Source: Okeania sp. SIO1F9 (GTDB lineage: Bacteria; Cyanobacteriota; Cyanobacteriia; Cyanobacteriales; Microcoleaceae). From it: 64,000 nucleotides of DNA. Location of the stretch: NCBI RefSeq assembly GCF_010672745.1, contig NZ_JAAHFW010000035.1:8973-72972 (forward strand). Reading direction: 5' to 3'. Shown one piece after another: positions 2,966 through 61,428 of this stretch. The position numbers and the translations under genes were made by a program. Each line of letters opens with the position of its first letter. Positions within the stretch are counted from its first letter, which is position 1. The notes below the pieces were generated by a model that did not search any database, was not told the origin of the DNA, and was given only the letters and a program-made list of their open reading frames with translations.

Positions 2966-3056
2966 AGTCGAAGGAAAAGTTAGGACAGATAAAAAGCTTA
3001 AAACTCAGACAAAGCAATTTTTCCCTCTTCCCTCTTCCTTCTTCCCTCTTCCTTCA
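2966..3056 (+). repeat. ~90-bp dispersed element ('GTCGAAGGAAARG..TAGGA..ATAAAAAGCTTAAAACTCAGACAAAG..ATTTTTCC' plus a TTCC/TCTTCC heptamer tail). Copy 1 of 4, immediately 3' of the rubrerythrin gene.
   Basis: Four copies in the same orientation (2966, 46514, 47763, 61316). Each lies just downstream of the stop codon of a minus-strand gene. Confidence 0.6.
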
Positions 3057-3069
3057 ACAAAAAAAATAC

Positions 3070-3783
3070 TTAAGCTGCAACCGCTTCTTCATAAGGAACA
3101 AAAGATTTCTTCTGCGCTCCACAAATAGGGCAAGACCAATCTTCAGGAATATCTTCAAATGCTGTACCAGGAGCAATACCAGAGTCAGAGTCGCCAACAA
3201 CTGGATCGTAAATCATCGAACACACCCGACAGATCCATTTACGGGTTGCAGCTTCCTTTCCAGCAGCTTTTTGTTTCGGTGCAACACCATTCAAACCTTC
3301 GAGAGCTTCTGTATATTGATCCGCGTGATGATGCTCAATGCTAGTCAATAAACCAAACTTATGAGTTGCTTGGCGAAACATCGAAGCGTGTTCCCGAGAC
3401 TCTTCTTCTTGCTCCTTAAATTCTGCTGCTGCTGCACTATCACGATCTACCCGTGCTTGTTCGGCAAATTCTGGGTACATAGTTGTATATTCATAAGTCT
3501 CTCCTTCAATTGCTAACTCTAGACAACGAGAAGCGATCGCTTTTTTCTGCTCTTCAGTCAAAGTAGATGGGTCGTCTACCACTAACTCTGGGTGAAGTAG
3601 GCGAAAGTGGGAAAAGGCGTGTTGAGTTTCTTGGTTAGCTGTTTCCCGGAAAAGTTTGGCTAAATCTTCCATGCCCAATTTCTTGGTTACTTCGGCAAAG
3701 AAAAGGTATTTACGGTTAGCCATTGATTCTCCTCCAAAAGCATCAGACAAGTTTTTGGCGGTGTTAGAGTTGGACAAGTCCAT
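3070..3783 (-). CDS. rbr: Rubrerythrin (ferritin-like di-iron domain plus C-terminal rubredoxin-type CxxC...CxxC)
   Basis: Di-iron ferritin-like ExxH motifs, and C-terminal '[10 protein letters not shown]...[10 protein letters not shown]' rubredoxin-like zinc/iron knuckles. Confidence 0.85.
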
Positions 3784-3942
3784 GATGTTCTCCTGAATTC
3801 TTTCTTTTACTCTGTTATATCTAAGAATAATTCTTATTTAATAAAATGTCAAGGAAAAGATTAATTTTAAATTAACAACCAATATTTGTTGAGATGTGTT
3901 ATAATCTGAAGTTGGTATAAAATCTATTAATAAGCCTAAATA

Positions 3943-4377
3943 ATGAACAGTAACTATACTGCAACAAATATTAAGAAAGAAATGCAATCTAAAGGACTGA
4001 GAATCACTCCTCAGCGGTTTGCAGTTTACGCTAATCTTTTATCTCGTTCAGACCATCCGACAGTAGAGGAGATACTGAGTGAAGTCAACCGTGAGTTACC
4101 AATTTCTTCCAAGGCAACTATTTATAGCGCCTTAACAGTGTTACGAGAAGTAGGGTTAGTTAAGGAAGTATTGTTGGAAGAGGGAGTAACTCGTTATGAC
4201 GCTAACGTTAAACCTCATCATCATTTTTGCTGTCAAAAGTGTGGCGCGATCATTGATATCGACTGGGAAACTTTTAGTAATTTGCAAATGGATCGTTTAC
4301 CACCAGGAATTTATCCTGAAAGTTATGAGGTTATTCTTAGGGGTACGTGCAGTCGTGAAAGTTGTAATAAAGCATAG
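3943..4377 (+). CDS. Fur-family transcriptional regulator, PerR-like
   Basis: The 'TPQR..V' winged-helix, an 'HHHF' metal site and 'CxxC' motifs are typical of Fur/PerR. It is divergent from rubrerythrin, a peroxide-regulon partner. Confidence 0.75.
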   Translation: MNSNYTATNIKKEMQSKGLRITPQRFAVYANLLSRSDHPTVEEILSEVNRELPISSKATIYSALTVLREVGLVKEVLLEEGVTRYDANVKPHHHFCCQKCGAIIDIDWETFSNLQMDRLPPGIYPESYEVILRGTCSRESCNKA

Positions 4378-4379
4378 GC

Positions 4380-4700
4380 ATTGAAGAAGGAAGAAGGAAG
4401 AAGAAAGAAGGAAGAAGGAAGAAAGAGGAGATACTAAAAAGTTGACAACCCTCGAATGATACCCAACCAATTCTAGATACCGTGGGTGAGGTTGGGGTAT
4501 TAAACCCATCAGGGAAAAGATAAATTTGATAGTGCGAGCATCTTGCTCGCGAATATTTTAGTATCGCTAAAAAAGAAGGAAGAAGAAAGAAGGAAGAAGG
4601 AAGAAGGAAGAAAGAATAAGAGAAAAGTGGATGGGGATACTAAAAAGTTGCCACGACTCTCGATCACTCCCCAACCAATTGTTCCTTCTGCCTTCGTTTA
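4380..4700. repeat. Composite repeat region: two tandem units of (GAAGGAA)n STRR plus a ~100-bp element carrying 'GGGGTATTAAACCC..AGGGAAAAGATAAATTTGA'
   Basis: GAAGGAA heptamer tracts lie at 4380-4432 and 4567-4611. The conserved element at 4494-4530 recurs at 12617-12652 and 42325-42360. Confidence 0.7.
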
Positions 4701-4747
4701 TGATATTCTTTTTGTTAATTACTATTGCCAATTATTAGAATTACCCT

Positions 4748-5134
4748 ATGAAAATCAAAAGCTTCAATCACGTTGCAATTATTTGCTCTAATTATGAAAA
4801 ATCAAAACATTTTTATGTGAATATTTTAGGATTTGAAATTATTCAAGAAACTTGGAGAAAAGCACGCAATTCTTATAAGTTAGATTTACTTGTAGGAAAT
4901 GGCGATCGCATTGAATTATTTTCATTTCCCAACCCTCCAAAAAGATTAACTCGTCCAGAAGCTTGTGGTTTGAGACATTTAGCTTTAGAAGTAGATAATA
5001 TTGATGAATCTGTCGATTATTTGAAATCTCACAATATAGAAGTAGAAAATATTAGAATTGATGAAATAACTAGCAAACGTTTTACTTTCTTTCCCGACCC
5101 AGATGGGTTGCCTCTGGAAATTTATGAAAGTTGA
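4748..5134 (+). CDS. VOC family protein (glyoxalase/bleomycin-resistance fold)
   Basis: The N-terminal 'FNHVAIICSNYEKSKHFY' is typical of VOC/glyoxalase I-like proteins. 128 aa. Confidence 0.7.
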   Translation: MKIKSFNHVAIICSNYEKSKHFYVNILGFEIIQETWRKARNSYKLDLLVGNGDRIELFSFPNPPKRLTRPEACGLRHLALEVDNIDESVDYLKSHNIEVENIRIDEITSKRFTFFPDPDGLPLEIYES

Positions 5135-5282
5135 AAAAGGCGATTAATAATTAATAATTCATAATTAATAATTGCCTCTTATTTTCAAGTAGAAATAATT
5201 ATTGATGGTTTACTTCCCCTCCTGGGAGTTGCTATGGGAACATTGCATGCAACGTCCCTACTGCCACTCAAGAAGGAGTTTG

Positions 5283-5400
5283 AGTACCCATCCATTTTTT
5301 CCTTGCTTCCTTCTTCCTTGCTTCCTTCTTCTTTGCTTCCTTCTTCCTTCTTCCTTCTTCCTTCTTCCTTCTTCCTTCTGACTTCTTTCTTCTTCCTTCA
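5283..5400. repeat. STRR heptamer tract (TTCCTTG/TTCCTTC)n
   Basis: Direct tandem heptamers. The overlapping ORF 5234..5464 is a translation artefact of the repeat. Confidence 0.8.
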
Positions 5401-5444
5401 AATAAATGCTAGGATTGTTCATAAAACAATTAATTTAGAGTGTA

Positions 5445-6710: not shown

Positions 6711-6783
6711 TCATTTCAGTTATCAGTTATCAGTTATCAGTACCTCTAAAACTCAACTTCCCCCTTCTTCGCTCCTCCTTCTA

Positions 6784-7344
6784 CTATAAATTCAACCTAA
6801 AACCAGGCAATAAATTTTCACCCGATAATTCAGTTGGAAGATTTCTTACTTCCACATCCTTTGCCAAACGATAAATTTCTACTTGTTGCTGCTGAGGATT
6901 AATTAACCATCCTAAATTTACTCCAGCATCCATATATTCTTGCATTTTGTCGCGCAACATTTCCAAATCATCTGTTCCTGACCTTAATTCAATTACAAAA
7001 TCCGGTGCAATGGGAGGAAACTTGCGCCGTTGTTCAGGTGTTAATGCTTCCCAACGTTCCCGTTTTATCCAAGCAACATCTGGGGAACGGTTAGCACCAT
7101 TTGGCAACTTAAAAACAGTAGATGAACTGAAAGTAAAACCAAGTTTTGTTTGCCGATTCCAGATGCCCAAATCAATAATTAATTCAGCTTCTCGATTACC
7201 ACTATCCCCACCAACTGGTGGCATAATAATTAATACTCCTTTAGCCGTTATTTCAAAGTTAAAATCGCAGTTATTTTGACATAACTGATAGAATTGTTCG
7301 TCTGTGAGATTAACAGTATCTAAATTTAATGTCAAAGTACTCAT
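6784..7344 (-). CDS. Uma2-family (DUF820) putative restriction-endonuclease-like protein
   Basis: A 'PDVAW...' core and overall similarity to the abundant cyanobacterial Uma2 family. The ATG at 7344 (MSTLTL...) is preferred over the extended ORF start at 7449. Confidence 0.7.
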   Translation of the reverse strand: MSTLTLNLDTVNLTDEQFYQLCQNNCDFNFEITAKGVLIIMPPVGGDSGNREAELIIDLGIWNRQTKLGFTFSSSTVFKLPNGANRSPDVAWIKRERWEALTPEQRRKFPPIAPDFVIELRSGTDDLEMLRDKMQEYMDAGVNLGWLINPQQQQVEIYRLAKDVEVRNLPTELSGENLLPGFRLNL

Positions 7345-7530
7345 AATTTTATACTTATTTAGAATTTTTATAAATATTATATGAGGAACTTTCCTACGGA
7401 ATGCTACGCAAATGTTATCAGCTTGTAGGGGCGAATGGCATTCGCCCATACTTGAGTTTAAATCTCCTTCTAAAAGTTTACTGCTGAAAGCTGAAAGCTG
7501 AGTGCTGAAATGCTGACAGCTTTTTTAAAA

Positions 7531-12563: not shown

Positions 12564-12616
12564 AAAATTGTTTGGGGTTAGAATCCCAAACAATTTTAAG
12601 CACCCCCGTTGACGGT

Positions 12617-23208: not shown

Positions 23209-23969
23209 AGTGCGAAAGTTATGGGAGGAGTCTATCAAACAAGTTCTTGATGAAATTCCAGATTTAAACTGATTACATGATTCTCAAGAATCTCAGGAAG
23301 ATATTTTGATTGATTGAACAACACAAGGGAGTGGAGGAGTGGGGGAGTACGGGAGTCAGGGAGTGGGGGAGTGGGGGAGAAATAAACATCAGAATTACCA
23401 CTTACACAGTACAACGTATTTCCGGAATGCTCCGCAAACGAGAACATCTCAAAAAAAATCTGCTGAAAGCTGTTTGCGCAGCATTCCGCAGGAAAAGCTG
23501 AACGCTGAGGTGCTTCTTTAATAATTTAAATGCTACCTAAGTTAAGCATTAATTCATGGTAATTGGTATAAATTAATCGAATTAAGCGATCGCGCAAGTA
23601 GAACAGAATTCTATCCCTCTAATATAGTTTCACCCCCATCGCGGAGTGTCTTTTTGGACGATAAATCTTGATCGTTGGTAAAAAAATTTAGATGCGTTGT
23701 AATACTACAAGAACTTGGTTAGGACATTTTTCAATCCTAAAATCCTTTTACAGTTTGTGATTCCCTATTCCCTGATCCCTACTCCCTAGCGCGTAGGGCT
23801 ATAATTTTTCAGTTTTCCCCATTTGTGGTTGTCAATAGTATAGTTAGAAAGAATTGGTTAGGACATAGACTAATGACGAATCTTAGACTAGAAAATTTTT
23901 TTCCAACTGTCCCCTGTTCCCTGTTCCCTGCTATACAATGTAACGGTTGTTTTAATTTTATTATAGAGT

Positions 23970-27236: not shown

Positions 27237-28088
27237 ATGCAAACACTTGGCAATTACGAGCAAAAACTAATATTACTACCTCATCTAGCAACATTAGGTA
27301 TTGGTATCGAAGCAGGGGTACAAACAATCGACACCTATCCCTACTATGTCATCGGTATGCTGCATCTCATCAGTTCTGCTGTTTTGGGAGCAGGAGGTAT
27401 CTACCATGCAGTTTTAGGGCCGAAACAGCTTGATGAGAAAGGTTTTGGCTACGACTGGGAAGATGGCAACAAGATGACTACTATTTTGGGTATTCATCTA
27501 GTGCTGTTGGGGGTGGGAGCATCTCTATTGGTCATTAAAGCAACGGTTTTAGGTGGTATTTACGATCCACTAATAGAACAAGTAAGGTTAATACAGCCTA
27601 ATCTCGATCCCGTAAGAATTTTCGGTTATCTGTTTGGCTTTAGTCCTAATGGTTGGACAATTACTGGCATGGCTAGCGTAGATAATCTCGAAGATGTGGT
27701 CGGTGGTCATGTCTGGGTGAGCCTACTCTGCACTGTTGGTGGTCTATTTCACATTATTTCCAAACCTACGGGTTGGGCAAAACAAATACTAATTTGGTCC
27801 GGAGAGGCTTACTTGTCTTACAGTTTAGGGGCACTTGCGATCGCAGGATTTAGCGTAGCTGTCTTTATCTCCACCAACGAAACTGTTTATCCTAGCGTGT
27901 TTTATAGTCCTATTGGCAGCGACTCTGTGCGAACTGCTCTTGCTACCGTTCATGCTGGATTAGGTTTCCTAGCTTTGCTCGGACATTTATGGCACGCTTA
28001 CCGAGCGCGAGCTGCTACTCGTAAAGTATTTTATGGAACGTTCTTTGACTTTATGGCTAAGAATGTTACACCTATTACACCTGCTTGA
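27237..28088 (+). CDS. isiA: Chlorophyll-binding protein of the CP43/IsiA/Pcb family, N-terminally truncated copy (lacks helix I)
   Basis: '[21 protein letters not shown]...[27 protein letters not shown]' matches IsiA from helix II onward. The upstream in-frame sequence is not IsiA-like. Confidence 0.75.
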
Positions 28089-28137
28089 ATAGAAGTCAAA
28101 ATCTAAGTTCAATCATTATATAAGGAGAACAATAGTA

Positions 28138-29166
28138 ATGACTGTCGTAACTGATGATAATCTGCAAATCCCTTGGCGGGCAGGTAATGCTCGGCTTGTT
28201 AACCTATCTGGTAAGCTATTGGGCGCTCATGTAGCCCATGCTGGCTTAATTGTACTCTGGGCTGGAGCTATTACTTTGTTTGAAGTTGCCAACTTTGATT
28301 CCTCCCTACCAATGTACGAACAGGGCTTAATTGTACTGCCTAATCTAGCCCGCTTGGGATTTGGAGTTGGTGAAGGAGGTGTCATTGATACCTACCCCTA
28401 CTTTGTGATTGGGGTACTGCATTTGATTAGTTCGGCGTTTTTAGGAGCAGGTGGTATATTCCACGCTCTCAGAGGTCCAGCCAAACTAGAAGACAAATTT
28501 TCCTTCTTTGGCTATAGCTGGGATAATCCAGGTAAAATGACAACTATTCTAGGTATACATTTAGTCTTATTAGGAATCGGAGCATTTTTACTTGTAGCAA
28601 AAGCGATTGCATTTGGAGGGTTATACGATCCAGTAGTTCAAAATGTACGAGTAATATCAAGTCCCACTCTAAATCCTACTACCATTTTCGGCTACTTCTT
28701 CGGTACAGAAGGACGTTTCTGGCTGGCTGGTGTTAACTCTTTAGAAGATGTAGTAGGCGGTCACATTTGGATTGGTGCTATCTGCATTTTGGGTGGTATC
28801 TGGCATATTCGCACCGTACCCTTTGACTGGGCTAAAGGCTTATTTGTCTGGTCAGGAGAAGCATATTTGTCTTACAGTATTGGCGCAGTCAGCTTAATGG
28901 CATTTGTCGCAACATTGTTTGTGTCCGTTAACTCCCTGGTATTTCCCACAGAATTTTTCGGACCAACTTTGACTCTGGTGTTCGATCGCTTTCCTGTGTT
29001 TGTTAGTACTGATGGAGCCTTGACTGCAAGAGTATGGTTGGCAAATGCTCACTTCTGGTTAGGATTTTTCTTCCTGCAAGGACATATATTCCACGCCCTC
29101 CGGGCAGCAGGTTATAGCTTCACCGAAGGCAGAGTAGTCACATTTACAAGAGGTCAAGTAAGCTAG
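28138..29166 (+). CDS. isiA: Iron-stress-induced chlorophyll-binding protein IsiA (CP43')
   Basis: Full-length, 342 aa, six helices. '[37 protein letters not shown]' is the classic IsiA N-terminus. Confidence 0.85.
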
Positions 29167-29168
29167 TT

Positions 29169-30734
29169 ATGACTGTAACTAAATCAAATCCATTAAAGTT
29201 TTTAGGCTTTTCCACAGATAATAATGTTGATGTTGCGAACTATGTTAGTGATTCCCAAGAACCTTATTCTTGGTGGGCAGGTAATTTTCGCTTTGTTAAC
29301 TTGTCTGGAAAATTATTGGGAGCGCACATTGCTCATGCAGGGTTGATCGTACTCTGGGCTGGAGCAATGACTCTGTTTGAGCTATCAAAATTCGATCCTA
29401 GTCTAGCCATGTACGACCAAGGACTGATTTTGCTGCCCCACATGGCGACTCTGGGTATAGGGGTTGGCGCAAATGGTGAAATTATTGATACTTATCCCTA
29501 CTTTGCTATTGGTGTTATCCATCTCGTTAGTTCAGCAATTCTAGGCGCTGGTGGCATTTTCCATGCCGTGCTTGGACCTGACAAACTTGATGAAAAGGGA
29601 TTTGGCTATCAGTGGAATGATGGCAAGAAAATGACTACTATCCTTGGTATTCATCTACTGCTACTGGGGATGGGAGCATTTTTGCTAGTAGCCAAAGCTA
29701 TGTATTTTGATGGTTTGTATGACCCGGCGATCGCCAATGTGCGACTGATTACTGAACCCACTCTCAACCCACAGACTATCTTCGGTTACCTCGTCGGTAT
29801 CACCCCTGATGGCTGGACGTTGAAGGGTATGGCTGCTGTCAACTCTTTAGAAGATGTGATAGGCGGTCACATTTGGATTGGTAGTATCTGTATTCTGGGT
29901 GGTCTCTGGCATATTAATACTGCTCCTACAAAATGGGCTAAGGGTCTTTTTGTCTGGTCGGGAGAGGCATATCTTGCCTATAGTCAGGCAGCTCTGGCTT
30001 ATATGGGTTTTTTCGCAGCCTACTTTGTCTGGGTGAATGATACAGTCTATCCTTCAGTATTTTATGGTCCTGTAGGTGTGACTAATGTTGATGGTACAAT
30101 CACTCCTCGCACCTGGCTGATGTTGTTCCAACTCATCTTTGCCTGTCTGCTACTGGCAGGTCACTTTTGGCATGGTCTCAGAGCTAGAGCGATCGCGAGT
30201 GGATTTGTCTTCAGTAATATGAAGTTCAATCCCGGTGCCCTCTATGGAGACACTCAGTTTAATAACGAATCTCTAGTGACTGGTATTGTACAGCCTTTCC
30301 AGAACGATCCCCAGTTGGGGAATTTGGCAACCCCAATTAATTCCAGTCAGCTTACCATCACTTGGGTTAAGAACTTACCCATTTATCGGAATGGTTTATC
30401 CCCTATTGCACGGGGTCTGGAAATTGGCATGGCTCACGGATACCTATTATTAGGGCCGTTCCTCAAACTCGGACCATTGCGCAACACCGACCAAGCTCTT
30501 CTAGCTGGAGGTGGTAGTGCATCTGGCTTAGTAGTGATTTTAAGTATCTGTCTGTTTGTTTATGGGGCGGTAGTGTTTCAAGGTTCTAGTAAACCAAGAG
30601 GCGTTTTGCCGGAGAACCTGCAAACTTATCAGGAATGGAGTCTATTTACTTCTGGTTTTCTCATTGGAGGAATAGGCGGTGTGATTTTTGCCTGCTTTAT
30701 CCTTATAGAAATCGGGCGATCGGGAATTTTATAA
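29169..30734 (+). CDS. IsiA (CP43')-PsaL fusion protein
   Basis: The N-terminal ~340 aa are IsiA-like. The C-terminal ~170 aa carry PsaL signatures ('[38 protein letters not shown]'). Such fusions are known in Anabaena 7120 (all4002) and Leptolyngbya JSC-1. Confidence 0.8.
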
Positions 30735-41527: not shown

Positions 41528-42565
41528 GTGTTGGTAGTGCCTAATTTATCATTTGGCAAAATTGCAAAGTTTTCGGTTTCTATCAGAATAGGAATTTTTA
41601 TTTTAACATTATTTCTGGGTTGGATACCACTAGCAGCACCAATATATTTTTTTGGGCGAGATGCAAATTTAGCGAGTATATTGGCGATCGCTCTATTATA
41701 TATAGAGTTTATTATTTTAGTCCAGTTTTGGGGAAAGAAAGTTTATCAACAACCACACCTACTACGTCACTACGGTTTAGAAATAAGTAGGGTCAACTTT
41801 CAGAATTTTTTTCAAGGTTTAGGAATAGGTTTAGTTAGTCTGTTTGGTTTTTTTATTTTAGAAACGTTTCTGGGATGGGTAATATGGCAGTCACCTTCAG
41901 CAAAGTTACCTCAATTTATTCTGGAAGGTTTATTGGTATCTGTGGGTATTGGTTTTGCTGAGGAGTTACTATTTCGAGGGTGGTTATTGGATGAGTTGGA
42001 GCGAGACTACAAACCAAAAGTAGCTTTGTGGGTAAGTAGTATTGTGTATGCCTTACTACACTTTATTAAACCAGTTGAGGAAATTTTGCGGATTTGGTTT
42101 CAGTTTCCTGGTTTGGTGTTGTTAGGTTTAATCTTTGTTTGGGCAAAACGTGGATCAGTTGAAGAAGGAAGAAGGAAGAAGGAAGAAGGAAGAAGGCATC
42201 CCCCCTTGCCCCCCTTTGAAAGGAAGAAGGAAGAAGGCATCCCCCCTTGCCCCCCTTTGAAAGGAAGAAGGAAGAAGTGGATGGTGACTCAAAACCCAAC
42301 TAATTATCAACACCGTGTAGATAGCGGGGTATTAAACCTAAAAGAAAAAGATAAATTGATTTCTTCTCAACAAGAATTATTGGGTTTGCCTATTGGTATT
42401 CATGCTGGTTTTGTGTGGGGTTATTACATTATTAATGTGGGTGGTTTAGTTAAGTATTCTAGTGTAGTTGGAGAGTGGATAGTTGGGATAAATGGTAATC
42501 CTTTGGCAGGTGTAATGGGGTGGTTTTTTTTAGGGGCGATCGCTTTGTTTATTCAGCGAAAGTGA
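41528..42565 (+). CDS. CPBP-family (CAAX) intramembrane metalloprotease carrying an in-frame ~195-bp repeat insertion
   Basis: The 'EELLFRGWL' motif 1 and 'ALLHF' are present. Codons 213-278 are encoded by (GAAGGAA)n STRR plus the GGGGTATTAAACC element. Confidence 0.65.
   Translation: MLVVPNLSFGKIAKFSVSIRIGIFILTLFLGWIPLAAPIYFFGRDANLASILAIALLYIEFIILVQFWGKKVYQQPHLLRHYGLEISRVNFQNFFQGLGIGLVSLFGFFILETFLGWVIWQSPSAKLPQFILEGLLVSVGIGFAEELLFRGWLLDELERDYKPKVALWVSSIVYALLHFIKPVEEILRIWFQFPGLVLLGLIFVWAKRGSVEEGRRKKEEGRRHPPLPPFERKKEEGIPPCPPLKGRRKKWMVTQNPTNYQHRVDSGVLNLKEKDKLISSQQELLGLPIGIHAGFVWGYYIINVGGLVKYSSVVGEWIVGINGNPLAGVMGWFFLGAIALFIQRK
42166..42360. repeat. STRR (GAAGGAA)n plus a 38-bp direct duplication plus a 'GTGGATGGTGACTC...GGGGTATTAAACCTAAAAGAAAAAGATAAATTGA' element, inserted in frame inside the CPBP gene
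   Basis: This is the same element family as 4440-4530 and 12600-12652. 'GAAGGAAGAAGGCATCCCCCCTTGCCCCCCTTTGAAAG' is duplicated in tandem. Confidence 0.7.
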
Positions 42566-44168: not shown

Positions 44169-44891
44169 ATAGTTACTTGTGAATTTTTGGACTGTTTAAT
44201 ATTAGAAGTTAACAATAGCATTTTATCAGTTTTTTTGTCTCAAATTCAATGCCCTAGTGTTAGACAAATTTTTATGTTGGCGACTGCCGTTTGCGTAGCA
44301 TTCTGTAGGAAAATAATTAATAATTAATTATTACTTATCTTTGGCCAAGTTCTTTACATTGAAAAAGTTTGATCGACCAAGAGAAGAAAAAATTTTCATT
44401 ATTAGTCAATCCTCTTCTTTTCAAGTAGAGGTAATTATTAATTATAGCAATTCCCAAGAAGCGTGAGGTACGCGCATTCGTTGGTTCTAGGGAATAGGGA
44501 ACAGGGAATAGGGAATAGGAGACAAATCAAGATAGGTGTACTTCATTAGGTTGAGAAAAGCTATATTAATTATTAATTGTTGAAAGATACCCTCTAGTAA
44601 TTATTGCTCTGCTGATTAAATCTCAAAGCATTGATATATAAAGATATTAGCCTTTTTTAGCTGGAAATACCTGGTTTTGATCCCTTCACGCTCATGCATG
44701 GAGCGCATTTTGGGGTGACTATGGCAGAAAAATCACTCTTGCTATAATGAACAACCACCTTCTCTATAACTCCCTCGTTCCTCCTGACTCTTAACTACTC
44801 CCTACTCCCTACTCCCTACCTCAACAAAAAGACTTTCCATAAGCAAACCCTAATTAGTATTAGAAGGTAGAGAGTTGAAGCGTCATAAAAT

Positions 44892-45836
44892 TCAGATATC
44901 TTGTCTATTTCTGGCATCTAAAAATTTTAATTGTTGATACAACATCCCAATTTTATCTAGCTGAATACCTGCTGCACCTGCCATTCGTAAAGGGTTGCCA
45001 ATAATACTTTCTATTTCTAAAGGTTGTCGTCGCTCATAATCAATTTTCATGCTAGTTAAATAAGGGTTTAACTTGTCAGTATGGTCTAACATATTTTGAA
45101 TATAACTATTTGGAATTTCGCACTTACAACTTTTTGCACCCTCCAATACTTCTTGCATTATTTCTGTGATTAAGTTTCTAGTATTAGTATCTCCCATCAT
45201 TTCATCAGTTCGAGCATCTAGAATTACTGACAAGCTGTTATAAGGAATATTCCAAACTAATTTTTTCCATCTTTCTTGGAATAAATCTTCACTCAAATTA
45301 ACTTGTATTCCAGCACTTTCAAAATCTTGGGAAATTTCACGCATTTTATTAGTAATACCAGCAGGTTGATAATTTGTGGTATATTTTCCGATTCTAATCA
45401 AACCATAATCTACATGGCGAATATGACCATAACCTATTTTATTAGAAGCAATATTAGATACTCCTCCAATTACTCTTTCCTCACCAACAATTTTGGCTAT
45501 TTCAGGTTCTGTACCCAATCCATTTTGTAAGAGTAAGACAACGTTATTTTCTTGGCACAAAGGTGGGAGTAATTCTGGTAATAAATAGTTTTGCGTTGTT
45601 TTTAATGCTACGAGAATTACATCACATTTTGGCATTTTATTAGTATTGTTATAGGCGTTAATTTGAGGGAGGGTAAAGTCGCCATTTTTGGATTCTATGA
45701 TTAAGCCATTTTTGAGAACGTGCTGATAATCACTACGCAGTAAAAAATGAACTTCTAATCCTGCTTTTTGTAGTTTTGCACCGTAAAAACCTCCTAGTGC
45801 GCCACTGCCAATAATCGCGTAAGTATTTTTTGACAT
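44892..45836 (-). CDS. panE: 2-dehydropantoate 2-reductase (ketopantoate reductase, PanE/ApbA)
   Basis: N-terminal Rossmann 'YAIIGSGALGGFYGAKL' and the ApbA C-terminal domain. Confidence 0.7.
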   Translation of the reverse strand: MSKNTYAIIGSGALGGFYGAKLQKAGLEVHFLLRSDYQHVLKNGLIIESKNGDFTLPQINAYNNTNKMPKCDVILVALKTTQNYLLPELLPPLCQENNVVLLLQNGLGTEPEIAKIVGEERVIGGVSNIASNKIGYGHIRHVDYGLIRIGKYTTNYQPAGITNKMREISQDFESAGIQVNLSEDLFQERWKKLVWNIPYNSLSVILDARTDEMMGDTNTRNLITEIMQEVLEGAKSCKCEIPNSYIQNMLDHTDKLNPYLTSMKIDYERRQPLEIESIIGNPLRMAGAAGIQLDKIGMLYQQLKFLDARNRQDI

Positions 45837-46513
45837 TTTATTGAACTTAAATTCGACTCTGTTTCTATTTTATTGTAAGCATTTCCTACGGAATGCTGCG
45901 CAAACAGCTATTAGCTGTCAGCTCTCAACAACAAGACTCTCTCATATAGGACAGTGTTTAAATTAATATAGACTTTAAGGGCAAGGGAGCTAACTTTTGC
46001 AGTAAGACAATTAATAAAGCTTTTATCGTAAACTAAAAGCAATAGCTAATAGTTATGACTGACCGTTGAATGCTTCAATAAAAGTTTTATTTAAACTCTA
46101 TTATTAAGGGCGAAGTCTTAATTTTTTTTACTTCATATACTTGCATTTTGCTGTATTAAACTCAACTCTATCATTATTTTATCTGTTCAAATTTTTCAAC
46201 TTTAATTTTGCTACATGAATAGTCTTTCCATTATCCAGTTTAAAATTTTTCCTAAAGCAAATCCTCCTGCCAATGCTAAGAAAATATAATACAGTAGATT
46301 CCACTTTAATCAGATACACCCGTCGCTGGCAAGATGCCCGCACTAGAAACATTTAATTGTTAATCTCTGTACTTCTTATGGGAGGAATCTGCTGTAATTT
46401 ATATTTATAACTCCAGCTTAAGTTTCTAGAATGTTCTAAATAAAGAAAGATAGAAAAAAATAGCAGGCAAAAACAGTACTAAAACTAAAGTTATAGTGTT
46501 TATAAAAGTTATA

Positions 46514-46597
46514 GCAGTCGAAGGAAAGGTTAGGAGAAATAAAAAACTTAAAACTCAGACAAAGGAATATTTTTCCTTCTTCCCTCTTCCTTCTGCT
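46514..46597 (+). repeat. Copy 2 of the ~90-bp GTCGAAGGAAAGG...AAAACTCAGACAAAG element, immediately 3' of the thioesterase gene
   Basis: See 2966-3056. Confidence 0.6.
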
Positions 46598-46623
46598 ATA
46601 TACCAATTCCTAAAAATAATGCT

Positions 46624-47064
46624 CTACTTATATTCATTGTTAATTTTTGAATAACTAGGAAAACTCAATAACCATTTCCTCATTTCATCAGATAATTTTT
46701 GCCTACTTCTACTTTGAGGATGAATACAAACGTGCTTCGTAATAGCTCTTGCCCCCCACTTATCCTCTGTTTCTTTTAAAAAGACTTGATAGGAAATTTC
46801 AAACTCATCGTCTCTCCAACTTTTAGGAATTAATTCAATAGTTAACTCATCCCCACAAAACATCGGGCGACGAAAATCAACATTAGCATGAATAATTGGA
46901 ATAGCTATTTCTTGATTACTAAAAAAAACTTTCAGATTAATACCAAATTCTACTAAAGATGCTTCATAAGCTTCATGGCACATTGCTAAAACATTAGCAA
47001 AATAAACTACTCCAGCAGCATCGGTATCTTGAAAATGAACTATTCTTGTATAGTAAAAAGACAT
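46624..47064 (-). CDS. Hotdog-fold acyl-CoA thioesterase (4HBT/YbgC family). Possibly the DHNA-CoA thioesterase of phylloquinone synthesis.
   Basis: 'VHFQDTDAAGVVYFANVLAMCHEAYEASL' shows the 4HBT active-site Asp. Confidence 0.65.
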   Translation of the reverse strand: MSFYYTRIVHFQDTDAAGVVYFANVLAMCHEAYEASLVEFGINLKVFFSNQEIAIPIIHANVDFRRPMFCGDELTIELIPKSWRDDEFEISYQVFLKETEDKWGARAITKHVCIHPQSRSRQKLSDEMRKWLLSFPSYSKINNEYK

Positions 47065-47281
47065 TTATAGATATAGGTTTAATAATAATACCATTTCTCT
47101 ATGAATTTGCGCTGAATAAAAGATGATAATTATCAGAATAATAAGGTCAGGGCAAAAATTATTAAGTGCATCGTTACAAAGAAATGATATTAGATTGAAT
47201 AAAGTTTTAGGTAATAGGTATTAGGTTCAATTGAAGATTAAACTTTAACCAGTTATAGAAACCGTAAAGACAGTCATATTT

Positions 47282-47760
47282 TCTACACTTATAACCTGAC
47301 ACCTACCAGGAAGGGTAGGGAGGATAAATCATATATTTAGGAATTAGGCATTTTTGAGTTCTAAACACTACATATCTGTAACGTTATAGTTTTTCTCATT
47401 ATATATAGTCTGTTTACCTAAATTCGGAACTATAACGTTATAGTTTTTCTCGTTATATATAGTTTGTTGACCTAAATACTGATCGCCTGACAACTGCCAC
47501 TCAAGGAAGGTAGGGACAATAAATCATATATTTAGGACTTAAGTATTTTTGAGTTCTAGAGACTACATATCTGTAACGTTATAGTTTTTGCTCGTGATAT
47601 ATAGTCTGTTGACCTAAATACTGATCGCCTGACAACTGCCACTCAAGGAAGGTAGGGACAATAAATCATATATTTAGGAATTAGGGATTTTTGAGTTCTA
47701 GAGACTACATATCTGCAACGTTATAGTTTTTGCTCACCATATACATAATAGTAGTCGAAG
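47282..47760. repeat. Tandem array of ~3.5 copies of a ~130-bp unit ('CTGACAACTGCCACTCAAGGAAGGTAGGGACAATAAATCATATATTTAGGAMTTAGK..TTTTTGAGTTCTAGAGACTACATATCTGYAACGTTATAGTTTTTGCTCG..ATATATAGTCTGTTGACCTAAATACTGATCGC')
   Basis: Direct repeats at about 47282, 47500 and 47631. Copy 1 carries an internal duplication of the 'AACGTTATAGTTTTTCTC.TTATATATAGT' sub-motif. No unique spacers, so not a CRISPR. Confidence 0.7.
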
Positions 47761-47762
47761 CA

Positions 47763-47850
47763 AAGGGCACGGACATATCAAAAGCTGAAAACTAAGACAA
47801 TGCAAATTTTTTTGTCCTTCGCTCCTTCCTTCTTCCTTTTCTGAACAATG
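47763..47850 (+). repeat. Copy 3 (diverged) of the GTCGAAGSAAAGGG...AAAACTMAGACAATG element, immediately 3' of the TerB-like gene
   Basis: See 2966-3056. Confidence 0.5.
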
Positions 47851-47917
47851 AACAATCACTACAATAAAATTGAGTATTGTTCATTGAACATTCATCAGGA
47901 CTAATTTTGTAATTAAA

Positions 47918-48364
47918 TTAACCCTTATTTTTAATCATTATTACATCAATAATCTTAGTCGCTACTGCTTCGGAAATTTCCAAAGCATTATATAACTCAT
48001 TCAAAAGTTGTTCCTCCTCTTCAGCAAGGTCTCCATCTACTAAAACCAAGTCTGTACTAACAGCAAAAACTGTTTCCCTTAACTCCTTTGGAAGTTTAGC
48101 AACTGCAGCATCAAACAAAGGCTTAATTTCTTGATTTTTAATCATATCGAGAAGACGGTCTTGCATTTCTGTTTTACGTTCTTTTGGATAATCACTAAAC
48201 AGTTGCATACGAGAGAAAATATTATTAATACCTTGAGATTCACTCTTAGTAATAACACCATCAGCAGCAACAGCAATTAAAGCGATCGCTGCAAAAGCTT
48301 CTGCCGGTTCTAATTGAATATCAGTAGCTTGTATTGTTGTTGTTCCTTGATCGAAAAGACCCAT
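47918..48364 (-). CDS. TerB-like (tellurite-resistance TerB / DjlA-N-like) domain protein
   Basis: A helical bundle with the 'AALIAVAADGVITKSESQ' and 'DGDLAEEEEQLLNELYNAL' acidic pair typical of the TerB metal-binding domain. Confidence 0.5.
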   Translation of the reverse strand: MGLFDQGTTTIQATDIQLEPAEAFAAIALIAVAADGVITKSESQGINNIFSRMQLFSDYPKERKTEMQDRLLDMIKNQEIKPLFDAAVAKLPKELRETVFAVSTDLVLVDGDLAEEEEQLLNELYNALEISEAVATKIIDVIMIKNKG

Positions 48365-48478
48365 TTTAGTACCTCATTAATGATTTTTTTACCATCTCTA
48401 TTTTGGAAAAATATTAGGTGTTATTAAATAAGTTTTAGATTGAATCTACAACCTAAAATTTACCACCTACTACCTTCT

Positions 48479-51200: not shown

Positions 51201-52837
51201 TTATGGGCCAGCTTGAGCGATCGCCCGAATTGTCTCAGCCCCCAAAGCCTCCACTTTTTGCTGAAACTCAGTAGCAGTAATTTCAGCCATTTGCCTTGCC
51301 TTCTCAATCTCTAAATTATTCAGTGTCTGCTGATGGGCTAACTCAGTCTCCTGACGCGCCCTCAACTGAGCCATCTCAGCCTCATGGCGAATCCGTGCTG
51401 CTTCTACTTCCTGCTGCGCCAAATTCACCGCCAACTGGCCTTGAAAAGGAGATAACATATAAGCTTGAGGTCCATTGACTAATTTTAGTTCCCCACTTTG
51501 AACATCCCGTACATATATACCTTCATTTTTGTCTAGGGGAATAGCCTGAAGTTTTTCTAATACTTCTAATTCCACTGGGGGAATATAATCTCTTGGCCCA
51601 GTAATCATCCATAAATCTCCTGGTTGCCGAGTAATAACGTTTGCTCCTGTTCCCTCGGTGAAAGTTTCCTCAACTCTGATTAGGAGTGCTTCTTGTTCAC
51701 CAAGAATATAGACCTTTTTAATTCCTGTTTCTAAATCTTCTCCTGGGTGCAAAAAGAAAGATGTTCTGCCCTGACGCACTTCTTTCATACCCCACTGCGG
51801 TTTACCATCTGCATCTATGGGATTAGTTACTATGCACCATTCGCGATCGCTTAAAGTAGTGATTTTGACTTCTCCCACTACTTCTTCATAAACGTCGGGA
51901 ATATGAATTTCAGCATCTGCAAAAGTAACTAACTATTCATATCCCGCTTTGCGTTGCTGACCAAAAATATCAGTAAAAGTCCGTTTTGCTTTTAGATGTA
52001 GTGCTTGACGTTCGGTTAATACATAGGCATCAATAGTATCGACAATTTCTTCATCTACTCCAGGCAAATAAGCACCTTCTTCCCTGACCAACCATTATTC
52101 CCCAGTTCTACGTCTGTTACCTTGACGATCTATACAATTTTGTCGTGCCAGCAGTCGTAAGGCTTGGTTAGGTTTAATTATTTTAGCTATAACTGTGACT
52201 ACCACTTCAACTTCTACCCTGGGAGTGTAAGTTCCTGGCCCCTCAAATAACCATTCATCCCCTGTCGTACGAGTGACAGTTTGAGACTCTCCTGCAACGA
52301 TAACTGTATCAGTAAAATCTCGTATTGCTTTGAGACGTAGAGTTTGGTTTGTGTCAATTACTTGTAGTTGAGTTACATCTTCTTCGAGTATTTCTCCTGG
52401 ATATAGTGGGAAAGGGTCTTGAGCAAAGCGAATTTCCAGATCGCCATATTTGAGTCTAATTTAACCATACTCATCGGCCACAAGTTGATCTGAACTATAG
52501 CAATGTGCGCTGGCATATTTACACATTATTTTTTGTACACCTTTTCTAAAATGCACTTTGAACTGGGCCTTGTAAATACCTGAGCGCTCATTGCTATATT
52601 TCTTAGTACAGGGTTAGCTGCTACACAATAATGGCGAGGTGGAACTACAATTGTCAGTTGTGGTTGTCAGACTAACCTTTCTGCATCTCCAAGGGTAATG
52701 GTTTGAGGGCCTATTTCTAGTCTGATAACACCAGTGTTATTGTCAAGAACATGAATATACTGTTGTGGCTTCAGGAGAATTATACCATTGTTCTCTATTG
52801 TAATTGGATATTCTGTGGTACTTTTTATTTTACTCAT
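51201..52837 (-). pseudogene. Major Vault Protein (MVP) homologue, pseudogenised (in-frame TGA, TAA and TAG plus at least one frameshift). The shoulder domain is apparently absent.
   Basis: Minus-strand translation from the ATG at 52837 reads 'MSKIKSTTEYPITIENNGIILLKPQQYIHVLDNNTGVIRLEIGPQTITLGDAERLV*QPQLTIVVPPRHYC...', followed by '[28 protein letters not shown]...[12 protein letters not shown]...[26 protein letters not shown]...ALHLKAKRTFTD...GYE*LVTFADAEIHIPDVYEEVVGEVKITTLSDREWCIVTNPIDADGKPQWGMKEVRQGRTSFFLHPGEDLETGIKKVYILGEQEALLIRV...QAIPLDKNEGIYVRDVQSG' and a coiled-coil cap-helix ending 'EALGAETIRAIAQAGP'. This closely matches vertebrate MVP ('[50 protein letters not shown]', '[29 protein letters not shown]', '[22 protein letters not shown]', '[22 protein letters not shown]', 'MTEAIGPSTIRDLAVAGP'). 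Confidence 0.7.
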
Positions 52838-52900
52838 AGTTTAATAGTTTTGTAACTAGAAATCTTAAGTTATTCATTATCCATTATTAATTATCTCTTA

Positions 52901-55279: not shown

Positions 55280-55591
55280 TATTGTGGTAGAGCCTTTTTT
55301 AGTTGATTATGGCATGAAACAATTTACTCATTTTGACATCTACAATTATAAAAAAAATAGTTTTAATTAAGAATATTTTCCTGATTCCAAAACTGAAAAT
55401 TAGAAGTTTAATTGTAACCCTTAATCATTAATTGATAGAGATATGTTACTCCAGAACACAAATTAATTCTGATAAAAAGTGTAATATAGAAACCAAAATA
55501 ATAATTTTGGCCACTCAAAACAAAAGCACAATTTTAACAGTGCTATCATAGACAGAAGCAAAGCTAAAATCAGGTATAGGGAGTTAAGTGG

Positions 55592-57004: not shown

Positions 57005-57031
57005 AAAAAAAAACCAATCAATATTGGTTTT
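57005..57031 (-). terminator. Rho-independent terminator of the DEAD-box helicase gene
   Basis: Minus-strand stem AACCAAT/ATTGGTT with a 4-nt loop followed by U9. A GC clamp hairpin CCCGCCCTCAGGAGAGTGCGGG lies just upstream at 57043-57064. Confidence 0.4.
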
Positions 57032-57093
57032 CCCATAGGATTATCCCGCACTCTCCTGAGGGCGGGTCTTCAACCAACGTTGAAATAAGTAAC

Positions 57094-58578: not shown

Positions 58579-58867
58579 TCATTCTCCTAAGTAAATTATT
58601 TTACATCTGGTTTTGTTACCCAACTTGGAGGCAGATTTATGCTCAACTATAGCTGCTTATCAGCCCTTGCTCACGATAAACCTGTAGTTATTTGGTAGGG
58701 CAGTATGCCTTTGCCAATCACAGTTTCTACTAAATCTACTAAACTGATAGCTAACATTTTAGTAGTGTCTGTATGTTCTCAACGGCTAGGTTTTAACCTG
58801 AAGATCGACGACAGAATTAAAGGCAAAATGCCTGTTCCTTTTCTCTCTAGTTGGGTATAGTGAAGTA

Positions 58868-58990
58868 CCTGCTCTATAAAACTGATACAAAGCGTCACAT
58901 AAAGTGACAAATTGACGTTTACTTCTTGCTTCAACTGAGGCCGTCGGCGGTTACTCATCCACAAGCATTTACGGTCGAGCCGACCGCATA
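58868..58990 (+). repeat. Second copy of the ~125-bp dispersed repeat seen at 30950-31075
   Basis: ~90% identity over ~120 bp. The ORFs overlapping either copy (31037..31288 +, 58779..59057 -) are on different strands and are probably spurious. Confidence 0.65.
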
Positions 58991-59904
58991 TCTCAAATTT
59001 ATACTGGCGTTTAAATCTCCTCAAAAGGAGAATCAGCGCAGCCACCCTGCTTCTCAAGGCGGATAAATTCTGATTTTTTTTGTAGAGGCTTTCCGATTTT
59101 ACAGGCAGACAAACATGAACATTATTAAGTTATGTAGTTTGTCTGATTACCTGAACTACCGCTAGTAGATATAATAGAAAATTTATATTGTTTCTACGAC
59201 CTTTTAAGTAAGTCAGGTAGGTTATCAACCACTACAATATAAAGATATAGAAATTACTACTGTCTCACACATATCAATCTCAGGAATTTTAAGCCCCTGC
59301 GATTAAGTTTCCTTTCGTCTCACTCCTAAACCTACGGCCATAGAGAGGAATTTCCTAGAGGGTCTGTTGAGAAAGGTTAGAGCCAATATTTGGCTATCGT
59401 TAAGCTGTTGTATATATCAAGTTTCCGTTGGACAAAGGAAGAAAAAATGACCTTAATTTTGAGGTTTTCCATGTCCCAGCGTATCTACCTACATTACCGT
59501 AGGTATTTTATGATACTTAACAGCTCCCTTTGGGTAGCTCGTCTTTATCTTCATAATGATTAACATAATAACAAATGACTTAACATTTGCCACATTTATT
59601 ACATATTTTCCTGGAATTAACTTAATTTTTTAGATTTTGTACATTGATGTAGAGGTTTTGGGACATTACACACTTTTTACAGAAGTTACTTAAAAGTGAT
59701 ACAGGCGTTACATGTAAAGTCTGTAAAGCAATCAAAGTTAAGAAGAATTTCTGATGTATATATTGTAATGTGTTAAGATTTTAAGTTGCGCAAGAAGCCC
59801 AGTATAGTTTATATCTTCATAAGTATCATTTAGTTGCAAGACTTTATGTGTCTAATGATGCTTTGGCAATCCCTAAAAATGTACCCTACACTTCAACTGA
59901 ATGA

Positions 59905-61236
59905 CTAATTGCTTGATTTACTCAAATCTACATAACCATACAAATCGTAAACATCTGCATCTGTAATCATCACTGGCACAATTGAACCCAAACGAGCTTT
60001 ACCTTGGAGATAAACAAGTCCATCCACTTCTGGAGAAAACCGTGGTGACCTACCAATCAACTCTCCTGTCTGAGGATTTTCCTGTTCAATCAGTACATCA
60101 ACTACTTGTCCCACTGATTTTTGATTCTGTTTTCCAGATATGGGCTGCTGGACTTGCATAATTTTTTCTCTACGGGTGTCCATCACTGCTTTGGGCAACT
60201 GATTAGGCAAACTATAGGCGGGGGTTCCTTCTTCTGGAGAGAAAGTAAATACCCCAACATGATCGAACTCGTGACGCTTGACAAATTTCACTAAATGTGC
60301 ATGATGATCTTCCGTTTCACCAGGGAAGCCCACTATAAAGGTTGTCCGCAACACGGCATTGGGCATAGCTGCTTTTATTTTTTCGATTATATCATCATTA
60401 ACCCGACCTTGCCAAGGTCTATTCATGGCCCGCAATATTTGGGGATGAGAATGTTGTAAAGGCAAGTCTAGATAGGGTAAAATATTGGGAGTTTCTTGAA
60501 TAGCAGCTATTACTTTGGGAGTCAAACCTGTAGGATAGGCATAGTGCATTCTAATCCAGGGTATATCAACTTTTCCTAGGGCGCGGAGAAGTTCGGCGAG
60601 TTTGGGTTCGCCATAAATATCGATTCCATAGTTAGTGGTTATTTGGGAGATGAGGATGATTTCTTTTACCCCTTGGTCTGCTAGTTGTTGAGCTTCAGTG
60701 ACAATAGATTCTATGGTGCGCGATCGCTGATTTCCTCGTAGATGAGGAATAATACAAAAAGCACAACGATAATCACAACCTTCAGCTATTCGCACATAAG
60801 CAACTCCTTCGGATGTGGTGCGGTAACGTGGGGTTGTTTCATCGGCAATATAGGTGGGTTGAGGGGAGACTTCTGTGACGCGATCGCCTTTTTCTACCCG
60901 TTGCATCACATCAACTATTTTATGATAATCACCAGTCCCCACAAGTGCTACTGCTTCTGGTAACTCTGCAAGTAATTCTTCTTGGAAGTGTTGCGCCATA
61001 CAACCTGCGATGACTATTTTTTTGTTAGCTTCTGCTAATTCTACCAAAGTACGAACAGATTCTTCTCTGGCAGTTTGAATAAAACTACAGGTGTTAACGA
61101 CTACATAATCTGCTAATTCTTCGTTAGCATCTACTTGATAACCCGCTTGTGCTAGTAAACCTATGATATGTTCGGTATCGATACGATTTTTTTCGCACCC
61201 TAAGTGAGAGAATGAAATGGTAGGTTTTGTAGACAT
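59905..61236 (-). CDS. rimO: Ribosomal protein S12 methylthiotransferase RimO (radical-SAM MTTase with a TRAM domain)
   Basis: The MTTase N-domain '[16 protein letters not shown]', the radical-SAM '[11 protein letters not shown]' and a C-terminal TRAM. The length and N-terminus fit RimO better than MiaB. Confidence 0.65.
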
Positions 61237-61315
61237 TTAGAGTTCTGAGTTATTAATTTTGATCGGGAATAGTCTTTATAATATAGCATATTACCTATGG
61301 CCAAATAAGGTATGG

Positions 61316-61428
61316 CAGTCGAAGGAAAGGGTGCGAACAGATCGAGAGCTTAAAACTCAGACAACACAATATTTTTTCTTTTTCCTTCTTCCTTCTTTAC
61401 TTCTTCCTTCTTCTTTCTGCTATAAAGC
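61316..61428 (+). repeat. Copy 4 of the GCAGTCGAAGGAAAGGG...AAAACTCAGACAACAC element with a long TTCCTTC tail, immediately 3' of the OmpA-like gene
   Basis: See 2966-3056. Confidence 0.6.

Follow-up and report, generated by a model that had tools for sequence, protein, structure and literature searches.

The stretch of DNA analysed here (the window, 64,000 nt of contig NZ_JAAHFW010000035.1) comes from Okeania sp. SIO1F9, a filamentous marine cyanobacterium related to Trichodesmium, and contains four copies of a short repeated element that lie beside genes for a rubrerythrin, a thioesterase, a TerB-like protein and an OmpA-like protein. An earlier note on this DNA had reported four copies in the same orientation, each closing with a tail of the short tandemly repeated repetitive (STRR) type, and both statements hold. 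When the sequences were read and aligned, a head, AGTCGAAGGAAAGG, and a core, GCTTAAAACTCAGACAA, proved common to all four. With up to three mismatches allowed, the 17-mer core has four matches in the window against 0.38 expected, and not one of 100 shuffles attained that number; the head by itself is too short for significance (7 window matches against 5.2 expected). Searched with a family profile, the window yields these four copies and no others, each on the plus strand. Every copy closes with a (TTCCTTC/TTCCCTC)n tract, and Tandem Repeats Finder reports the corresponding period-7 arrays at 3021-3052, 46573-46594 and 61378-61418. The tail by itself is thus an STRR or heptamer simple repeat, that is, a tandem 7-nt array between the genes of a filamentous cyanobacterium; the element as a whole is not. 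Only chance open reading frames (ORFs) of 41-62 amino acids (aa) overlap the copies. The names given to the neighbouring genes are supported by Pfam, with Rubrerythrin and Rubredoxin matches for the gene beside copy 1 and with thioesterase, TerB-like and OmpA-like matches for the other three.

The positions of the copies and of related features are compiled in Table 1. The four places had been given correctly before, and their limits are corrected there; the former start of copy 3, 47763, was about 15 nt too late, and the inverted octamers that bound copies 2 and 4, TATAGCAG or TATGGCAG on the left and CTGCTATA on the right, had been missed. Each copy had also been placed 10-70 bp past the stop codon of a minus-strand gene. 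The genes are on the minus strand in all four cases and the gaps of copies 1 and 2 fall in that range, whereas those of copies 3 and 4 exceed it. Because about 55% of the large ORFs in the window are on the minus strand, the finding of four copies out of four downstream of minus-strand genes is not significant by itself.

Table 1. Copies of the repeated element and related array-bearing elements in the window.
Feature	Position	Strand	Parts	Neighbouring genes
Copy 1	2960-3055	plus	head TATAGAAGTCGAAGGAAAAG, core GCTTAAAACTCAGACAAAGC, tail (TTCCCTC/TTCCTTC) x ~5; without the 3' terminus CTGCTATA	rubrerythrin, minus strand, stop 3070-3072; 14 nt from tail end to stop
Copy 2	46510-46600	plus	full length, 91 nt; TATAGCAG 46510-46517, heptamer tail ~46573-46592, CTGCTATA 46593-46600	4HBT thioesterase, minus strand, stop 46624; gap 23 nt
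Copy 3	47747-47841	plus	head (TA)ATAGTAGTCGAAGC, core GCTGAAAACTAAGACAAT, tail ~47815-47841; 3' terminus lost; most diverged of the four	TerB-like ORF, minus strand, stop 47918; gap 76 nt
Copy 4	61311-61424	plus	full length, 114 nt; TATGGCAG 61311-61318, tail 61374-61416, CTGCTATA 61417-61424	OmpA-like ORF, minus strand, stop 61541; gap 116 nt; RimO start (61236) 74 nt away, the copy upstream of it
Sister element	23839-23935	plus	TATAGTTAGAAAGAATTGGTTAGGACA ... TTTTTTTCC AA (CTGTCCC/CTGTTCC)n CTGCTATA; same plan with another core and heptamer; not in the four-copy family	34 nt upstream of adenylosuccinate lyase ORF start
Third type	23700-23805 (also in locus L116)		same head-core-array-terminus plan, heptamer ATTCCCT/CTATTCC	
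GGGTTTAATACCCCACC module	~51434-51496, 59568-59616 (reverse-complement coordinates)	minus	before heptamer arrays	

The genome-wide search for the core that the earlier note had proposed shows that the four copies belong to a large family. The core query CTKAAAACTMAGACAA, scanned over a species-representative genome collection, returned at least 120 loci; among the matches listed, about 70 from Okeania spp., a Microcoleaceae metagenome-assembled genome (MAG) and a Cyanobacteriota MAG carry the whole element, with at least about 75 true copies in all, and core matches in other phyla were discarded as chance matches to the 16-mer only. A profile search over the retrieved loci (numbered with the prefix L) then gave at least 103 copies in Okeania and related Microcoleaceae, or at least 80 independent sites once orthologous sites and tandem arrays had been merged. 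Since the copies were retrieved with the core motif itself, its conservation is inflated. Viral contigs scanned with the core gave 120 chance matches and two weak profile hits that are not copies. After removal of orthologous duplicates there remained 17 independent full-length copies, which measure 78-114 nt (median 99) and differ in length almost wholly by the number of heptamers. Their layout is TA/TAGCAGTCGAAGGAAAGG, a variable segment, AAAAGCTTAAAACTCAGACAAC, ATTTTTCC(TTCTTCC)n and TTCTGCTA/TA, slashes marking the limits of the element; the consensus begins TA/TAGCAG TCG AAGGAAAGG, the variable segment comprises 12-14 nt (its forms include TTAGGACAGATC, GCGCGGACATATC and TGTTTGACAGATC), and about 6 variable nt separate AAAAGCTTAAAACTCAGACAAC from ATTTTTCC. 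Imperfect terminal inverted repeats (TIRs), TAGCAGTCGAAGGAA... on the left and ...TTCCTTCTGCTA on the right, enclose the internal heptamer microsatellite. The left end reads TATAGCAG(TCG)AAGGAA and the right end TTCCTTCTGCTATA, so that the pairing parts are, from the outside inward, TATAGCAG and CTGCTATA, AAGGAA and TTCCTTC, and GGACAGATC and GATTTTTCC; outside TATAGCAG and beyond CTGCTATA the flanks of full-length copies are unrelated. The (TTCCTTC)n array lies just inside the right end, varies in length and travels with the element. Among the variants are copies whose 5' half differs, five 69-bp units of core plus tail in tandem (L054), whole copies repeated at a spacing of about 190 nt (L097), and copies broken up by other small elements.

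Two features of the family are recorded for their own sake. The tail of eight copies contains a mini-insert of about 24 nt, (C)TCTCC TAGATAACTAAA NNCC, at a fixed place after the first heptamer (positions L043 352, L047 636, L081 1786, L095 7638, L098 232, L105 3036 and L116 350); it also occurs in 10 other contexts, and it is present in L043 and absent from the orthologous copy in L117. It resembles the very small dispersed repeats that Elhai and colleagues are said to have described from Nostoc in 2008. The centre of the element has the family consensus TATCAAAAGCTTA, found for example in the consensus-type copy L119 (ATATCAAAAGCTTAAAAC), and this fits the consensus site of integration host factor (IHF), WATCAANNNNTTR. 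The match was spotted after the fact, its chance expectation being estimated by hand at about 0.01 per element, and the window copies diverge from the consensus (at about 2990-3001, 46540-46551, 47777-47789 and 61341-61352). Neisseria Correia elements reportedly carry an IHF site at their centre likewise; the view generally held is that cyanobacteria possess HU and not IHF.

The clearest evidence for movement is a pair of filled and empty sites. In Okeania sp. SIO3B5 (L048) there is a full-length copy of 96 nt, and the orthologous stretch of Okeania sp. SIO1I7 (L082) is without one, both flanks being aligned at 87-89% identity. The empty site reads AATTATCAT/TA/AAGGCC and has no heptamer array. 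The filled site reads AATTATCGT T(G)A, then the element from TAGTAGTCGAAGG to CCTTCTTCCTTCTTCCTTCTGCTA, then TA AAGGCC; the insert runs TAGTAGTCG...(CCTTCTT)3.5...CTGCTA and stands between two TA dinucleotides, against the one TA of the empty site. Because the empty site lacks a heptamer array, the array arrived with the element, and the whole unit including its tail is the inserted piece. Copy 3 provides a second case of presence and absence, since it occurs in the window, in L122 and in L123 (Okeania sp. SIO2C9) and is missing from L124 (Okeania sp. SIO1I7), where the flanks are contiguous at ...TTCAGAATATATATCGCGCAAAAAC....

The histories of the other window copies vary in depth. Copy 2 occupies the same site in five records of the closest Okeania clade (the window and L121-L124) and is absent from three more distant relatives, in which the downstream sequence is not alignable; the thioesterase encoded beside it is identical in two Okeania assemblies. 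Copy 4 is old, with orthologues in the OmpA-RimO spacer of three other Okeania species (L128-L130). There an insertion of about 230 nt, bordered by duplicated AAAATATTG, separates the tail of the copy from its core; beside the head lies a second small element, which has inverted ends ATCATGTCCGG...CCGGACATAAT; and the array, having expanded from about 6 units to a maximum of about 28, abuts the OmpA stop codon. The spacer measures 672-761 nt in the three species (L128 1758-2500, L129 1837-2500, L130 1748-2500) against 304 nt in the window (61237-61540); the surplus is due to these nested small elements and to further heptamer arrays of the GGAGTCA and CTCCCCT types. The RimO of the window is 100% identical to a protein annotated 'MULTISPECIES [Okeania]'.

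The strain of L121 is 100% identical to the window over 2,276 nt on the left of a 726-bp deletion (window 47099-47824; L121 2967-2968) and 99.9% identical over 2,256 nt on the right. The deletion removes the core of copy 3, with one breakpoint inside the heptamer tail and 2 nt of microhomology, and the TerB-thioesterase spacer of L121 is only 125 nt long. A second difference between the two, an indel of about 390 bp, lies at window 44353-44843. A 142-nt minisatellite adjoins the head of copy 3 (window 47433-47735; L123 1637-2866; L124 1972-2690); L121 has no unit of it, the window and L122 have two full units and one partial diverged unit, L124 has about 5 and L123 about 10.

We consider it probable that the four repeats belong to a family of non-coding transposable elements of the miniature inverted-repeat kind (MITEs) that contain an internal heptamer microsatellite, that an IS630/Tc1-mariner-type transposase mobilises them in trans, and that their location next to stop codons is a bias which they share with heptamer arrays. 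Our working definition of a MITE follows the account of Nezha and other MITEs in PMC3184786. The family is short and non-coding, has TIRs at exact boundaries and many dispersed intergenic copies, and shows filled and empty sites. A small non-autonomous element had been the second of the two possibilities raised in the earlier note, and the TIRs, the sharp boundaries, the TA-flanked filled and empty pair, the presence and absence between sister species and the occurrence in every type of intergenic space all speak for it. A DDE transposase of the IS630/Tc1-mariner type would bind both ends of the element and cut and paste it into TA dinucleotides; the tail would grow and shrink by replication slippage, and old copies would lose their terminus, gain nested insertions and duplicate in tandem. 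Elements of this type insert almost exclusively into TA, with duplication of these 2 bp (PMC2170065), and the assignment is drawn from the duplicated TA at one junction pair. With the MITEs of IS630/Tc1-mariner elements (reference ISY100 of Synechocystis PCC 6803; PMC2170065) the Okeania element has in common TIRs of about 17-30 bp, TA-flanked insertion, a single TA in the empty site, and small, non-coding, multicopy and intergenic units; it differs in its internal heptamer microsatellite and in that no partner insertion sequence (IS) or transposase was found in about 0.63 Mb of Okeania-clade DNA, and the likeness is one of TA and layout.

Other known systems differ more. The Nezha MITE of Anabaena variabilis and Nostoc (Zhou et al. 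2008, as summarised in PMC3184786) is likewise cyanobacterial, with TIRs, flanking direct repeats, a stable predicted hairpin, and filled and empty sites in close relatives. According to the same summary, however, it has about 130-170 bp, belongs to Nostocales and has a TIR in common with ISNpu3, whereas the Okeania element has 78-114 bp, occurs in Okeania and Microcoleaceae and has a heptamer tail and no known partner; identity with Nezha was rejected on size and host, the two being set apart by description. A precedent for small inverted-repeat ends around a variable tandem repeat, always between genes, is the BrickBuilt MITE of Porphyromonas gingivalis (PMC4596501), although that element contains a 23-nt minisatellite, lives in a Bacteroidota host and has promoter activity, whereas the Okeania element has a 7-nt unit at one end and no promoter-like site in the copies scanned.

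A different mode of transfer would be for a Y1 transposase to carry a hairpin element in the form of single-stranded DNA, either as repetitive extragenic palindromes (REPs) or REP doublets (REPINs) with a REP-associated tyrosine transposase (RAYT), or as a palindrome-associated element of the IS200/IS605 type. This would explain the strand or orientation bias relative to genes described below, and the element is indeed a long imperfect palindrome. TnpB/OrfB_IS605 genes lie near two orthologues of copy 4, downstream of RimO (a fragment at L129 4632-4985 and a full-length gene at L130 4756-5985), and not in the window. However, the inverted repeats stand at the very termini and are flanked by duplicated TA, whereas in IS200/IS605 elements the hairpins are subterminal and insertion leaves no duplication. 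REPs have 20-40 bp and GTAG or CGTC tags (PMC3733652); the present element has about 100 nt, starts with TATAGCAG and carries no such tag. No Y1 transposase is linked to any copy, and we hold this explanation to be very improbable.

The placement of the family relative to genes was determined with simple non-overlapping ORFs of at least 100 aa taken as genes. None of the 80 independent sites lies inside such an ORF. At the 61 sites where both neighbours were called, the orientations (head-side gene first, relative to the element) were -/- 26, +/+ 14, -/+ 12 and +/- 9, so the claim that the element always lies immediately 3' of a gene does not stand: all four configurations occur, and 12 of the 61 sites lie between divergent genes. 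What does exist is a bias. At 18 of the 80 sites a stop codon is found no more than 100 nt from the tail end, against 3 sites for the head end (p=0.0015); if the distance is narrowed to 30 nt, 11 tail ends and 1 head end remain. There are several instances of an array that begins 0-5 nt past the stop, or of a terminus whose TAG doubles as the stop codon, and 7 of the 11 stop-proximal copies are without CTGCTATA beyond the tail. The closeness of tails to gene starts is partly an artefact, as arrays contain no stop codons and ORF starts are therefore over-extended toward them.

This bias speaks for a cis-acting 3' untranslated region (UTR) element or small RNA, the identity that had been favoured before. 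In that case the hairpin of GAAGGAAAGG and CCTTCTTCC, or the polypurine (GAAGGAA)n in the mRNA, would terminate or stabilise the upstream transcript and the family would be kept for that purpose. It would account for the four window copies that follow minus-strand genes and for the arrays so often found directly after a stop. G-rich heptamers of Xanthomonas and Nostoc are likewise stop-proximal on the sense strand, and most are transcribed (PMC4692102). The 12 sites between divergent genes, however, have no 3' UTR, 14 copies lie in the opposite sense between co-directional genes, and at orthologous sites of sister species the element is absent and the gene retained. The pairing described earlier as a long-loop hairpin is real in that it is the inverted repeat of the element, but it shows no covariation: scored over 14 terminal pair positions, the 17 independent full-length copies keep the consensus pair 215 times; of the 23 changed positions, 20 are altered on one side, 3 on both sides in a way that does not pair, and none in a compensatory manner. 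With 20 one-sided and no compensatory changes, the termini look like two decaying protein-binding sites rather than a helix under selection. Single-sequence folding on both strands gave a result better than shuffles for copy 2 only (z=-3.3), which its inverted repeat explains; the other three copies, in the plus sense, fold no better than shuffles.

Searches for known RNA features agree with this. Rfam at gathering thresholds returned for the window only three IsrR matches, which lie away from the copies, and at relaxed thresholds the best matches for copies 2 and 3 scored 12-25 bits against thresholds of 40-100. A consensus scan of 45800-48400, which includes copies 2 and 3, revealed nothing that resembles a terminator, nor anything that resembles a promoter within the two copies. 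An intrinsic terminator was considered and rejected, since the stems are rich in A and G, pair over long range and lead into GACUGCUAUA or a C/U tract, and the scanned region has no G+C-rich stem with a U-tract. A dedicated 3'-UTR RNA element, whether terminator, stability element or small RNA, is thus less likely than a bias shared with arrays, and as the identity of the family we regard it as unlikely; a secondary use of some copies is possible.

A further comparison is with arrays that have no core. Among 71 pyrimidine-rich heptamer arrays more than 200 nt from any copy of the family, the same polarity of tail to stop codon was found 22 times against 3. The polarity thus belongs to heptamer arrays in general, and any 3' function would be that of the array, not of the conserved part of about 60 nt. 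The position of the element relative to genes expresses a tendency and follows no strict rule. In Nostoc and Xanthomonas, heptamer repeats have the same polarity: near stop codons their purine-rich strand is the sense strand, and just upstream of ORFs it is the antisense strand (Rehm et al.; PMC4692102). STRR and heptamer repeats (those of Calothrix cited in PMC4692102, GGGGAYT and GGGAATC studied there) are alike to the Okeania array as intergenic tandem arrays with the same placement rule; in contrast to the latter, which is internal to a transposon-like unit and consists of GAAGGAA without runs of three or more G, those studied were described as free-standing repeats that form G-quadruplexes.

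The polarity most likely reflects what is tolerated next to genes. A transcript containing (GAAGGAA)n may be impeded, as happens with GAA repeats; past a stop codon this would do no damage or even be of use, and in a 5' UTR it would be damaging. Alternatively, deletions may start at the fragile outer edge of the array and run until the constrained end of an ORF, an idea that fits the missing terminus in the 7 of 11 stop-proximal copies, the array abutting the OmpA stop codon in L128-L130, and the deletion in L121. An insertion preference may also be the cause.

The core-less arrays bear on another explanation, in which the array comes first: (TTCCTTC)n would originate independently beside genes, and the head and core of about 60 nt would be a separate element that inserts at the edge of arrays, as small dispersed repeats do in Nostoc. 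The window has at least five arrays of the GAAGGAA/TTCCTTC type without a core, such arrays have the polarity just described, the mini-insert has its fixed place in the tail of eight copies, and most of the stop-proximal copies have no CTGCTATA beyond the tail. Yet the empty site L082 has no array, and L048 has head, core, 3.5 heptamers and terminus as one block. In addition, CTGCTATA follows the array in all 17 independent full-length copies, a CTGCTATA-like terminus follows the pyrimidine-strand end in 40 of 649 period-7 arrays against 1 in the opposite orientation, and each sister family has its core paired with its own heptamer. An array-first origin therefore appears quite improbable.

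To return to the MITE family moved in trans, several points weigh against it. The duplication of TA is seen in a single pair (empty site CAT/TA/AAGG) that has a 1-nt blemish, the extra G at the left junction, and because TA is its own inverted repeat, the duplication is indistinguishable from TIR ends in other copies. The pair for copy 3 lacks a right terminus, could equally be a deletion and is silent on duplication. Random insertion into TA would not lead one to expect the bias of tails toward stop codons, for which something more has to be assumed, and the gene calls behind this bias are crude. The central 22 nt are very well conserved though a MITE needs no such part, which may be an effect of ascertainment, this motif having been used for retrieval. 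Finally, a search through about 0.63 Mb of Okeania-clade DNA turned up neither an IS630-type transposase nor an autonomous element whose ends match, and Pfam detected no transposase among 20 window ORFs. The ends against which a partner IS would be matched are of the TAGCAGTCG type, TA/TAGCAGTCGAAGG; pairs of TATAGCAG-type ends 0.6-3.5 kb apart, and ORFs near other TATAGCAGTCG termini, gave only neighbouring small elements in the same 0.63 Mb. The IS630 (ISY100) transposase was also sought in the Synechocystis plasmids pSYSA and pSYSM, and none was present in 100 kb.

The family is not the only array-bearing element in these genomes. The sister element at 23839-23935 runs from TATAG... through GGTTAGGACA, a T-run and the array to CTGCTATA, and it has a near-identical relative in L016 (O. 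hirsuta); the window has no excess of GGTTAGGACA taken as a motif in general. The third type of Table 1 is built in the same way and likewise recurs in another Okeania genome (L116). A module of about 90 nt, GGGTTTAATACCCCACC..GGTGCTTAAAATTG..TGACTATCC, precedes (CCTTCTG)n or (CCTTCTT)n arrays in L008, L016, L028 and L051 and looks like a further family of such elements. The terminus TATAGCAGTCG(CCATTAC) heads other small elements too. That all heptamer arrays are carried by elements of this kind was rejected, as the terminus occurs in about 6% of them (the 40 of 649). One more repeat in the window, at 42161-42277, is a perfect 41-nt repeat of 2.4 units, (GAAGGAA)n plus CATCCCCCCTTGCCCCCCTTTGA, inside a plus-strand ORF (41528-42565) whose Rce1-like domain (residues 129-206) ends before the repeat; the ORF is probably extended artificially through this stop-free sequence.

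We know of no explanation, since their first description, for the origin of STRR arrays in filamentous cyanobacteria. One conjecture, which we think rather doubtful, is that such arrays are seeded and spread as the microsatellite of TA-inserting MITEs and that the polypurine array has then been co-opted as an orientation-dependent barrier to transcription, through an R-loop or triplex as with GAA repeats. A barrier would explain the arrays that end tail-first right after stop codons. The one empty site without an array, the sister families each with its own heptamer, and the shared polarity are consistent with this conjecture; the small fraction of period-7 arrays that carry the CTGCTATA terminus limits it.

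Elsewhere in the window, upstream of copy 1 at 385-2650 on the plus strand, two adjoining ORFs resemble a defence or restriction-type pair, the first with a sub-threshold GmrSD_N match and the second with no Pfam match, and an ORF for a Uma2-family endonuclease lies at 6784-7449. The three IsrR matches, strong at 119-131 bits (gathering score 52), occupy the minus strand at 27456-29790, one antisense to each of three consecutive plus-strand ORFs (27237-28088, 28138-29166 and 29169-30734). IsrR is the antisense RNA of isiA, and the three ORFs are presumably isiA-type genes. A tRNA scan of the window found none.

The literature on MITEs of Trichodesmium and Okeania, on STRR and transposable elements and on small dispersed repeats contains no individual description of the element that we could find, and the paper on the primary transcriptome of Trichodesmium describes other repeats and not this one. 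The most diverse sets of MITEs in a census that took in 183,232 genomes were those of Okeania sp. KiyG1 and O. hirsuta, with 225 and 221 kinds (PMC11602168), and the family is probably included in the automatic catalogue of that census. The observation is real and well beyond chance, but fairly ordinary: this is a single family within a genus whose MITE repertoire was already known to be the richest of all prokaryotes, and in annotation the repeat is to be masked or labelled as mobile DNA and not as a gene for an RNA. It is also a concrete case in which a transposon-like unit delivers a cyanobacterial heptamer array to a new site, and so offers a testable route of origin for some STRR arrays. 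Beside this delivery, the remaining point of interest is the polarity of tail to stop codon, by which the stop-proximal, purine-on-sense arrangement of Nostoc and Xanthomonas extends to Okeania and which invites a test of arrays as orientation-dependent barriers to transcription.

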